Part shown: one piece after another, positions 28,187 through 30,216 of the stretch | Numbering within the stretch: the first letter of the stretch is position 1 | Layout: each line of letters starts with the position of its first letter | Assembly: GCA_052055015.1 (NCBI GenBank) | Contig: JBQJIT010000041.1 | Origin: Malassezia furfur | Lineage: Eukaryota | Strand: one strand, 5' to 3' | DNA length: 44,431 nucleotides | The notes under the pieces: generated by a model | Seen by the model: the letters and a program-made list of their open reading frames with translations, nothing else | The model's database searches: none | What the model was told of the DNA's origin: nothing | Translations under genes and position numbers: made by a program

Positions 28187-28317
28187 ACCGGACCCCACGC
28201 ACGTACGACGTGACGCATCGCTCCGCACCCCACGTCGCTCTCAGACCAATTGCCACGTGACCCTCTCATAAGCAAGGCGCGGCGCGCGGACGCGTCGCGG
28301 GTTCACGTTCGTCGAGG

Positions 28318-30216
28318 ATGGCGCCCAGTGTAGGTATTCTATATGCTCACGACAGCCGGTGAAAGGCGGCCGCGTTGCCGGCGGAAAAATGCTGCGTAGC
28401 CGTGCGCGCACGGCGACAATTGATGAGTCGGTCGCCAAAAAGATCAAGGAGCACCAGAGCGAGCTGGTGAAGCAGAAGCAAGAAGAGGGCCTGAAGCGCT
28501 TCAAAGGCGAAGACGGTGGCGGTCATGACACGAACGAAGAGGTGTTCAAAAAGTACGAAAGCTACCGCCGTGAGAACCAGCTACCTACCAAGGTGGAAGA
28601 CCTTCGCGTACGTTGCGCGTCACGACTGACTCCAGATCCTCGTCGACCAGCGCGCGCAGTCGCTGATTCTTCCGATCAACTCTTACGCTGTACCATTCCA
28701 CATCAAGACGGTAAAGAACGTGAGCAAGTCGGATGAGGGAGAGTACACCTACCTGCGCATTAACTTTGTAACGCCCGGTCAGCTGTCGGGCAAGAAGGAC
28801 GACGTTCCCTTTGACGACCCGGACGCGACTTTTATCCGCAACATTAGCTACCGTTCGACGGATGCGCGCCACTTTGATGATATTTATAATGAAATCACCG
28901 AGATGCGGCGCATTGCGTCCAAGCGCGAGGCGGAGCGCAAGGAAATGGCTGACGTTGTGGAGCAGGACCAGCTCATCCTCAGCAAGGCGCGGCCCCTGGT
29001 GTTGCCAGAGGTCTTCCCGCGCCCGGCACTTGAGGGCAAGCGTCTCCCTGGCTCGCTCACTATTCACCAGAATGGTGTACGATTCATGTCTCCTCTGCGG
29101 CAAGACCAAAAGATTGATATCCCCTTCAGCAATGTCAAGCATCTTTTCTACCAACCATGCGACAAAGAGCTCATTGTGCTCATCCATTTCCACCTGAAGT
29201 CGCCCGTGATGATCGGGAAACGCAAGACGCGTGACATTCAGTTTTACCGCGAGGCGTCCGACGTGCAGTTCGACGAAACGGGCAACCGGAAGCGCCGGTA
29301 CCGCGCGGGCGACGAAGACGAAATTGAACTCGAGCAGGAAGAGCGGCGCCACCGCCACATGCTCAACAAGGAGTTTAAACACTTTGCACAGAGGATTGCC
29401 GACGCTTCCGAGGGCCGGCTGCAGGTCGATATCCCGTACCGCGAGCTGGGCTTCAACGGTGTCCCTTCGCGTGCGAGTGTGCTGCTCCAGCCAACGACGG
29501 ACTGCCTTGTGCACTTGTCTGACCCGCCTTTCCTTGTCGTGACGTTATCCGAGCTCGAAATTGTGCACCTGGAGCGCGTGCAGTACGGCCTATCGTCGTT
29601 TGACATGGTCTTCGTGTTCCGCGACTTTTCGCGACCACCTTTGCACATTAGCAGCGTGCCGAGCTCGTCGCTGGATGATGTGAAACAATGGCTCGAGTAC
29701 GTGCAACCAGACTGACCATCAGCTCGGTCGATGTGTGTGTCACTGAGGGCGCCGTCAACCTTAACTGGAGTGCAATTATGAAGACGATCAACGAGGGTAC
29801 GTGGCGGGATGTGTATAAACTCACACAGACCCGTATGCCTTTTTCCAGGAGGGCGGATGGGAGTGTACGTTTTGTCGCACGACTGACCCACAGTCCTTCA
29901 AGCCGATGGCAGCGACAGTGAGGAAGACTCGGAGAGCGAAGCGGAGTCGGAATTCGATTCGGATCTTGCCGGCGACCAGCAAGAGTCGACCGACTATTCG
30001 GAAAGTGGTTCCGACTTTGGTGCTTCGGAAGAGGACAGCGAAGACGGCTCTGAAGAATACGACGAGAGTGAAGAAGGCGAGGACTGGGACGAGCTCGAAG
30101 CCAAAGCTGCTCGCGACGACCAAAAGAAACGCCAAGAACGGGGCGACGGTAGTGGCAGCGAGGACGACGACGTCAAGCCGAAGAAGAAGAAGAAGGGCGG
30201 CTTTGGCAAATTGTAG
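28318..30216 (+). CDS. SPT16: FACT subunit Spt16 lacking the N-terminal domain (about 585 aa: dimerisation, middle and acidic domains); introns 28330-28355, 28608-28635, 29697-29722, 29797-29828, 29865-29893
   Basis: [102 protein letters not shown] and an acidic tail with GEDWDELE. Confidence 0.93.

Follow-up and report, generated by a model that had tools for sequence, protein, structure and literature searches.

A FACT subunit Spt16 lacking the N-terminal domain in Malassezia furfur and its relatives

The SPT16 locus and its protein

We analyzed a stretch of DNA of 44,431 nucleotides from Malassezia furfur (GenBank assembly GCA_052055015.1, contig JBQJIT010000041.1), referred to below as the window, with attention to its gene for Spt16, a subunit of FACT. 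SPT16 lies on the plus strand and is divergent from ATG8 (Table 1). The gene encodes a protein without the N-terminal domain (NTD), the aminopeptidase-like part of ordinary Spt16. To our knowledge, this domain is present in the Spt16 of essentially all eukaryotes that have been studied.

All five introns of the gene have the form GTA(C/G)GT ... CT(G/C)AC ... CAG. The first ATG and exon 2 are in different frames, so removal of the 26-nt intron 1 is required; this intron was placed from the sequence together with the annotation of orthologues. The reading frame of exon 2 is closed upstream by an in-frame stop codon, and the only other candidate for a start is an in-frame ATG inside exon 2. The spliced product is identical, letter for letter, to a GenBank protein of M. 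furfur CBS9595 (KAI3626509.1, P0303), and its N-terminus, MAPS|PVKGG, is common to the GenBank proteins of M. furfur and M. japonica. A first-pass annotation of this DNA had described a spliced gene of about 585 aa with a 12-nt first exon, a canonical 26-nt intron and an alternative ATG at 28389, and the spliced model reproduces each of these features.

The domains of the protein were identified with Pfam. Exon 3 contains the complete dimerisation domain that pairs with Pob3/SSRP1 (PF08644, profile positions 1–112, E = 4.4 × 10−44), the PH_SPT16 domain (PF24824, E = 2.3 × 10−48) and the Rttp106-like domain (PF08512, E = 1.3 × 10−19). For SPT16_C (PF21091) the tail scores 27.9 bits, the cut-off being 27.1 (E = 2.9 × 10−6), and it aligns to that of the relatives. 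No Pfam family was found in the 84 aa of exon 2. This exon aligns to residues 470–549 of a FACT subunit chain (7xsx_j), to residues 479–552 of Saccharomyces cerevisiae SPT16 (7nky_Q) and to residues 458–551 of Testicularia Spt16, that is, to the linker and to the first part of the dimerisation region. Thus, the protein begins where the NTD of an ordinary Spt16 ends.

Neither lobe of the NTD, FACT-Spt16_Nlob (PF14826) or Peptidase_M24 (PF00557), was found by Pfam when exon 2, exon 3 and the tail were scanned, and PF00557 is also absent from the precomputed domains of six relatives (P0001–P0006). The whole window was then searched on both strands by tBLASTn with five full-length Spt16 proteins and one NTD-only protein, and outside the SPT16 gene no NTD match was better than E = 1.5. 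Both methods agree with the earlier statement that the whole NTD is missing and that the protein is intact from the linker to the acidic tail. The orthology with Spt16 stands without the NTD, because this domain is dispensable for viability in yeast, and the orthology is carried by the three other domains and by the tree described below.

Compared with canonical Spt16 (S. cerevisiae SPT16/CDC68, 1035 aa), the remaining domains of the M. furfur protein are identical in kind and order. What the Malassezia form lacks is the Nlob and the M24-like lobe (about 450 aa) together with the acidic stretch that follows the NTD, and in their place it has a new short N-terminus of 3–35 variable residues. 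The nearest full-length relative among the matches listed is the protein of Testicularia cyperi (1033 aa), to which the large exon 3 is 78% identical.

The missing domain has also affected the naming of these proteins. Twelve Malassezia entries in GenBank are named ‘Xaa-Pro aminopeptidase’ (P0001, P0003, P0004, P0300–P0302, P0305, P0314, P0315, P0317, P0328 and P0335), although they have no aminopeptidase-like domain. We rejected this identity since the M24 ‘pita-bread’ catalytic domain (PF00557) is not there. The name is a transfer error, taken from the very domain that is missing, and in practical terms many GenBank entries for Malassezia Spt16 are therefore misnamed.

Upstream, the gap to the intact, divergent ATG8 measures exactly 131 nt, as the first-pass annotation had it, and leaves no space for the NTD. 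The ATG8 assignment is supported by Pfam on two pieces of its open reading frame (ORF; E = 2.5 × 10−24 and 1.2 × 10−15). The gap contains the motif GTCACGTG on the minus strand. A motif of this type (RTCACGTG) had been pointed out as a sign that the start of SPT16 evolved in place. The motif is indeed present upstream of SPT16, but it carries no weight and was rejected as a sign of an evolved promoter, because 5 sites of this type occur in the window where chance alone would give 5.47. For the evolved start there remains the N-terminus kept in M. japonica.

Two tBLASTn matches extend in frame to position 28185 and cross a stop codon (IPDPTH..SL / GFTFVEDG against the last 50 residues of the NTD). 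A local alignment of the intergenic region with the NTD ends of six Ustilaginomycotina was equalled by 32 of 500 shuffles for the mean score and by 60 of 500 for the maximum. A relic of the NTD in this region was thus rejected as chance, since shuffled sequences score as well. It was also considered that NTD exons might lie further upstream, with ATG8 nested in an intron. This arrangement was rejected because there is no NTD similarity in the window, and it is also opposed by size, the nine modelled introns of ATG8 and SPT16 being only 22–32 nt long.

Table 1. Features of the SPT16 locus and other features of the window (positions in the 44,431-nucleotide stretch).
Feature	Position	Strand	Description
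SPT16 gene	28318–30216	+	six exons, five introns of 26–32 nt; coding sequence 1758 nt, 585 aa
SPT16 exon 1	28318–28329	+	12 nt, codes MAPS; ATG 28318–28320
SPT16 intron 1	28330–28355	+	26 nt, GTAGGT..GCTCAC..CAG
SPT16 exon 2	28356–28607	+	84 aa; basic linker and helical start of dimerisation region
Alternative ATG	28389–28391	+	inside exon 2, in frame
SPT16 intron 2	28608–28635	+	28 nt
SPT16 exon 3	28636–29696	+	dimerisation domain (PF08644), PH-like and Rtt106-like middle domain
SPT16 intron 3	29697–29722	+	26 nt
SPT16 exon 4	29723–29796	+	end of middle domain
SPT16 intron 4	29797–29828	+	32 nt
SPT16 exon 5	29829–29864	+	
SPT16 intron 5	29865–29893	+	29 nt
SPT16 exon 6	29894–30216	+	acidic C-terminal domain; stop 30214–30216
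In-frame stop	28269–28271	+	closes frame of exon 2 upstream
ATG8/SPT16 intergenic region	28187–28317		131 nt, presumed bidirectional promoter
GTCACGTG	28254–28261	−	in ATG8/SPT16 intergenic region
ATG8	27729–28186	−	five exons; introns 26, 25, 22 and 25 nt; 119 aa; end ..FG|HDS intact
Rieske iron-sulfur subunit of cytochrome bc1 complex	30423–31199	−	UCR_TM and Rieske domains; downstream of SPT16, convergent
Long ORF	23456–27262	−	about 1268 codons; many Ser/Pro/Asp stretches of low complexity; interrupted by scaffold gap
Scaffold gap	23528–23537		10 N

The short form in Malassezia and its origin

Short forms of Spt16 were collected by a search among proteins of 194–618 aa and by cluster look-up. 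In 15 named species of Malassezia the annotated Spt16 is short (501–597 aa), and the contigs that carry it measure 0.77–3.1 Mb. The lengths are 581 aa in M. psittaci, 563 in M. brasiliensis, 576 in M. obtusa, 585 in M. furfur, 591 in M. japonica, 501 in M. caprae, 572 in M. nana, 577 in M. sympodialis, 597 in M. equina, 592 in M. cuniculi, 584 in M. restricta, 586 in M. globosa (MGL_2012), 584 in M. arunalokei, 578 in M. vespertilionis and 583 in Malassezia sp. CBS 17886.

We aligned the proteins of 14 of these species, leaving out M. caprae, with five full-length relatives. Homology starts at one and the same linker, the GGKxLRSRxR motif at about residue 470 of yeast Spt16, and the variable residues mentioned above precede it; for M. 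brasiliensis and M. obtusa, the annotation places the start codon slightly further downstream. Among the 120 matches listed out of 1510 in the range of 619–2000 aa, no NTD-bearing Malassezia protein was found, and the only Malassezia-like entry there is a form of 622 aa with a retained intron, again without NTD. The best full-length matches among those listed are from other Ustilaginomycotina (Testicularia, Violaceomyces, Thecaphora and Pseudozyma among the full-length relatives), with 70–78% identity and all with both PF14826 and PF00557. Within Malassezia the identity is 87–95%. Judging from these values (78% to the smut protein), the retained part of Spt16 is evidently under strong constraint.

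A quick maximum-likelihood tree of 35 rows was calculated from the region common to all proteins; M. brasiliensis, M. obtusa, M. nana and M. caprae were omitted because their gene models have evident defects. The 11 Malassezia rows form one clade (Shimodaira–Hasegawa-like approximate likelihood ratio test, SH-aLRT, 100) that is nested among full-length Ustilaginomycotina, in agreement with one deletion on the branch leading to the genus. Six rows of the ascomycete family Lipomycetaceae, which also have a short Spt16, are grouped in another clade of their own (SH-aLRT 100). The label ‘NTD-less’ changes only twice on this tree, and none of 500 label shuffles gave so low a number.

The origin of the short form may be explained by a single ancestral event. 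The NTD-coding part would have been deleted once, in the ancestor of Malassezia, without being retained as a separate gene. A new start would then have arisen just upstream of the conserved GGKxLRSR, in M. furfur in the shape of a 12-nt exon and a 26-nt intron. This new start adjoins a promoter region that SPT16 would have in common with ATG8.

Loss or fission of the N-terminal domain

Wu et al. 2015 (PMC4634964) listed the Pfam domains of predicted fungal proteomes, obtained by hmmscan with trusted cut-offs, in their S3 Table (supplement file 12). There, none of the 26 Malassezia proteomes has PF14826, each of the 16 other fungi has it at least once, and the family is entered in the sheet ‘missing domains in Malassezia’. 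For PF08644 the count is one in every Malassezia proteome that is not doubled and two in four M. furfur strains whose counts are doubled. It thus occurs once per haploid proteome, and a second, full-length SPT16 elsewhere in the genome, which would have overturned the first-pass annotation, does not appear in these proteomes. For PF00557, the 22 non-doubled Malassezia proteomes have six domains in 18 cases, five in three and seven in one, and all 16 other fungi have at least seven. The M24 count of Malassezia is one below that of the smuts, and a deficit of one is to be expected if the Spt16 lobe was lost.

We also searched for a stand-alone NTD. Residues 1–450 of Testicularia Spt16 were compared with proteins shorter than 568 aa, seeded by shared words of five residues. 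Down to 30% identity there were 59 matches, none of them named Malassezia and none with member counts typical of that genus (the P0121 cluster has 212 members); distant taxa such as Spiromyces, Mycena and a chrysophyte were among them. BLASTP showed that the fragments of higher identity are pieces of full-length genes, since they run into the linker or the dimerisation domain. An NTD profile was then compared with metagenome contigs of JGI, where 329 relatives were found and the best 80 kept. Among these 80, the loci with more than about 1.3 kb downstream all continue into the rest of Spt16, and there was neither a stand-alone NTD nor a Malassezia-like locus. On two short contigs, L050 (1063–2044) and L076 (1161–2096), the NTD match is followed by about 0.9 kb without an Spt16 match, which could be due to introns, divergence or split genes. 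In the ESM Atlas, the NTD gave a plant-dominated cluster of Spt16 NTDs and clusters of bacterial aminopeptidases, with nothing on Malassezia.

The first-pass annotation had left two explanations side by side, a naturally minimal FACT and an Spt16 split into two genes. The proteome table and the NTD searches favour the first, and the second is less supported. Given that the truncation is real, loss of the NTD is highly probable. Taking all the evidence together, we consider Malassezia SPT16 to be a single gene for a functional, naturally N-terminally truncated subunit of FACT, whose NTD was lost once while the core activity was kept, and we give this reading a probability of about 0.82.

Several points weigh against it. 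The evidence for loss comes from predicted proteomes and from searches seeded by words or patterns, so that a diverged, unannotated or fused NTD gene may exist. The proteomes of 2015 are incomplete: ATG8 (PF02991) is counted 0 times in 14 of the 26 Malassezia proteomes, although ATG8 is present in the window. The protein search was word-seeded and limited to proteins shorter than 568 aa, and the metagenome scan kept 80 of 329 relatives, without a positive control for the representation of Malassezia contigs. Predictions from the sequence and from third-party annotation underlie the 12-nt exon, the start of transcription and the decision between the ATGs at 28318 and 28389. What the truncated FACT does is judged by extrapolation from budding yeast. 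As to the zero counts for ATG8, they are probably caused by genes with tiny introns being missed in gene prediction.

Some of these points would suit a gene fission, in which Malassezia has kept the NTD as a separate or fused gene elsewhere that acts with FACT in trans. The break lies exactly at the domain boundary, as it would in a viable fission, and the yeast NTD is reported to fold on its own (PMC3362939). Published proteomes miss real genes, as the case of ATG8 illustrates, and the domain counts come from such proteomes and not from a six-frame search of the genomes. However, gene prediction catches a gene of 450 aa much more readily than the 119-aa ATG8 with its four introns, and the absence of PF14826 from all 26 proteomes holds regardless of protein length. 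The reduced M24 count, the lack of Malassezia names among the 59 shorter NTD relatives and the lack of a stand-alone NTD among the best 80 of 329 metagenome loci point the same way. Fission therefore appears improbable.

An artefact, in which mis-assembly or mis-annotation has removed the 5′ half of a normal SPT16, would find some room in the window, which is not free of gaps. However, its 10-N gap is 4.8 kb away from SPT16, intact ATG8 and the in-frame stop lie immediately upstream of the gene, and no similarity to the NTD exists in the 28 kb before it or the 14 kb after it. Moreover, the same truncated protein is found in 15 named species and in two lineages of M. furfur, in independent assemblies of Mb scale, and a mis-join in a single assembly does not explain this recurrence. 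The view that the contig is not broken at this place was therefore upheld, the model of 585 aa being that of the GenBank protein, and we regard an artefact as extremely improbable. Decay of the gene to a non-functional remnant, with the function of FACT supplied otherwise, is suggested by the missing domain alone and is hardly credible in view of the open frame over six exons with canonical splice sites, the identities of 78% to smut Spt16 and 87–95% within the genus, the single copy per haploid proteome with no second SPT16, and the SSRP1 (Pob3-type) domains that have been kept.

Function, parallels and significance

A truncated but functional FACT in Malassezia would have a close counterpart in engineered yeast. 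The NTD is reported to be the one domain of Spt16 that is dispensable for the viability of budding yeast (PMC3362939). Its removal was found to lower, without abolishing, the stimulation of chromatin replication by FACT, with the contact to Tof1 gone (PMC8860610), and to weaken both the binding of FACT to MCM2-7 and the recycling of parental histones, mainly on the lagging strand (PMC10681723). A contact of the NTD with Set3C has also been reported (PMC8191775). The engineered Spt16-deltaN and S-deltaN-P FACT have the same architecture as Malassezia Spt16, and the deletion is viable with reduced stimulation of replication (PMC3362939, PMC8860610). In contrast to the engineered case, the deletion in Malassezia is natural, fixed throughout the genus and presumably long compensated.

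By analogy, Malassezia FACT would be a working heterodimer of the Spt16-deltaN/Pob3 type, like the engineered yeast complex. The protein has kept three parts: the dimerisation domain, which in FACT pairs with Pob3; the double-PH middle domain, by which H3-H4 and DNA are held; and the acidic tail, where H2A-H2B is bound. The part missing is the whole aminopeptidase-like NTD of about 450 aa. Reorganization of nucleosomes, the core activity in transcription and replication, would take place by means of the middle domain and the C-terminal one. Malassezia FACT would work without the anchoring to MCM2-7 and Tof1 that the NTD provides and without the contact to Set3C.

Each of the 26 Malassezia proteomes tabulated by Wu et al. 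2015 contains SSRP1/Pob3-type domains and, likewise, the Tof1/Timeless, MRC1 and MCM2 N-terminal domains. Since the partners in the replisome have been retained without the NTD, the coupling of FACT to the replisome may proceed through other contacts or may be relaxed. In the same table, the SSRP1/Pob3-type family PF03531 has two matches in 20 of the 26 Malassezia proteomes and one in the smuts. This doubling may stem from a change in Pob3 or simply from the way domains were counted.

The short Spt16 of Lipomycetaceae (520–576 aa) has the same remaining domains. It is annotated in 12 named species, namely nine species of Lipomyces, Kockiozyma suomiensis, Myxozyma melibiosi and Dipodascopsis uninucleata. 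In the three that were aligned (L. arxii, Kockiozyma and Dipodascopsis), the start of Spt16 falls at the linker where Malassezia Spt16 also begins. Because these ascomycetes form a separate clade, their truncation is independent of that in Malassezia, and the case looks like an independent loss or fission. A stand-alone NTD from Lipomycetaceae was not named among the 59 NTD matches shorter than 568 aa, which is the sole test made. It seems somewhat more plausible than its opposite that the NTD was given up altogether on two or more occasions in fungi, one being in the ancestor of Malassezia and another in that of Lipomycetaceae, with both cuts at the same linker and with the coupling of FACT to the replisome achieved otherwise or relaxed.

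The bare fact of the truncation is already known, since the proteins have been deposited and a supplementary table of 2015 has a row for the missing N-lobe. The main text of that study (PMC4634964) gave no match for chromatin or for several wordings of missing or lost domains, and the study is not among the papers found to contain the name Spt16. In the literature covered, most subscription journals being outside this coverage, we found no paper that takes up an NTD-less Spt16, be it of Malassezia, of Lipomyces or of other organisms. The surprise is limited because yeast tolerates the same deletion.

We consider the finding to be of moderate to good interest for specialists in chromatin and replication, as a new natural variant of FACT. 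The NTD has recently been assigned to the anchoring of FACT on the replicative helicase and to the recycling of parental histones, yet it is dispensable in yeast. A genus of fungi living on the skin of humans and animals, and apparently a second family of yeasts, would do without this domain and would thus constitute a natural experiment on what the NTD is for and what can replace it. If the NTD has indeed been discarded in both lineages, they would be natural delta-NTD FACT systems, and the debated role of the NTD in vivo could be tested by comparing them.

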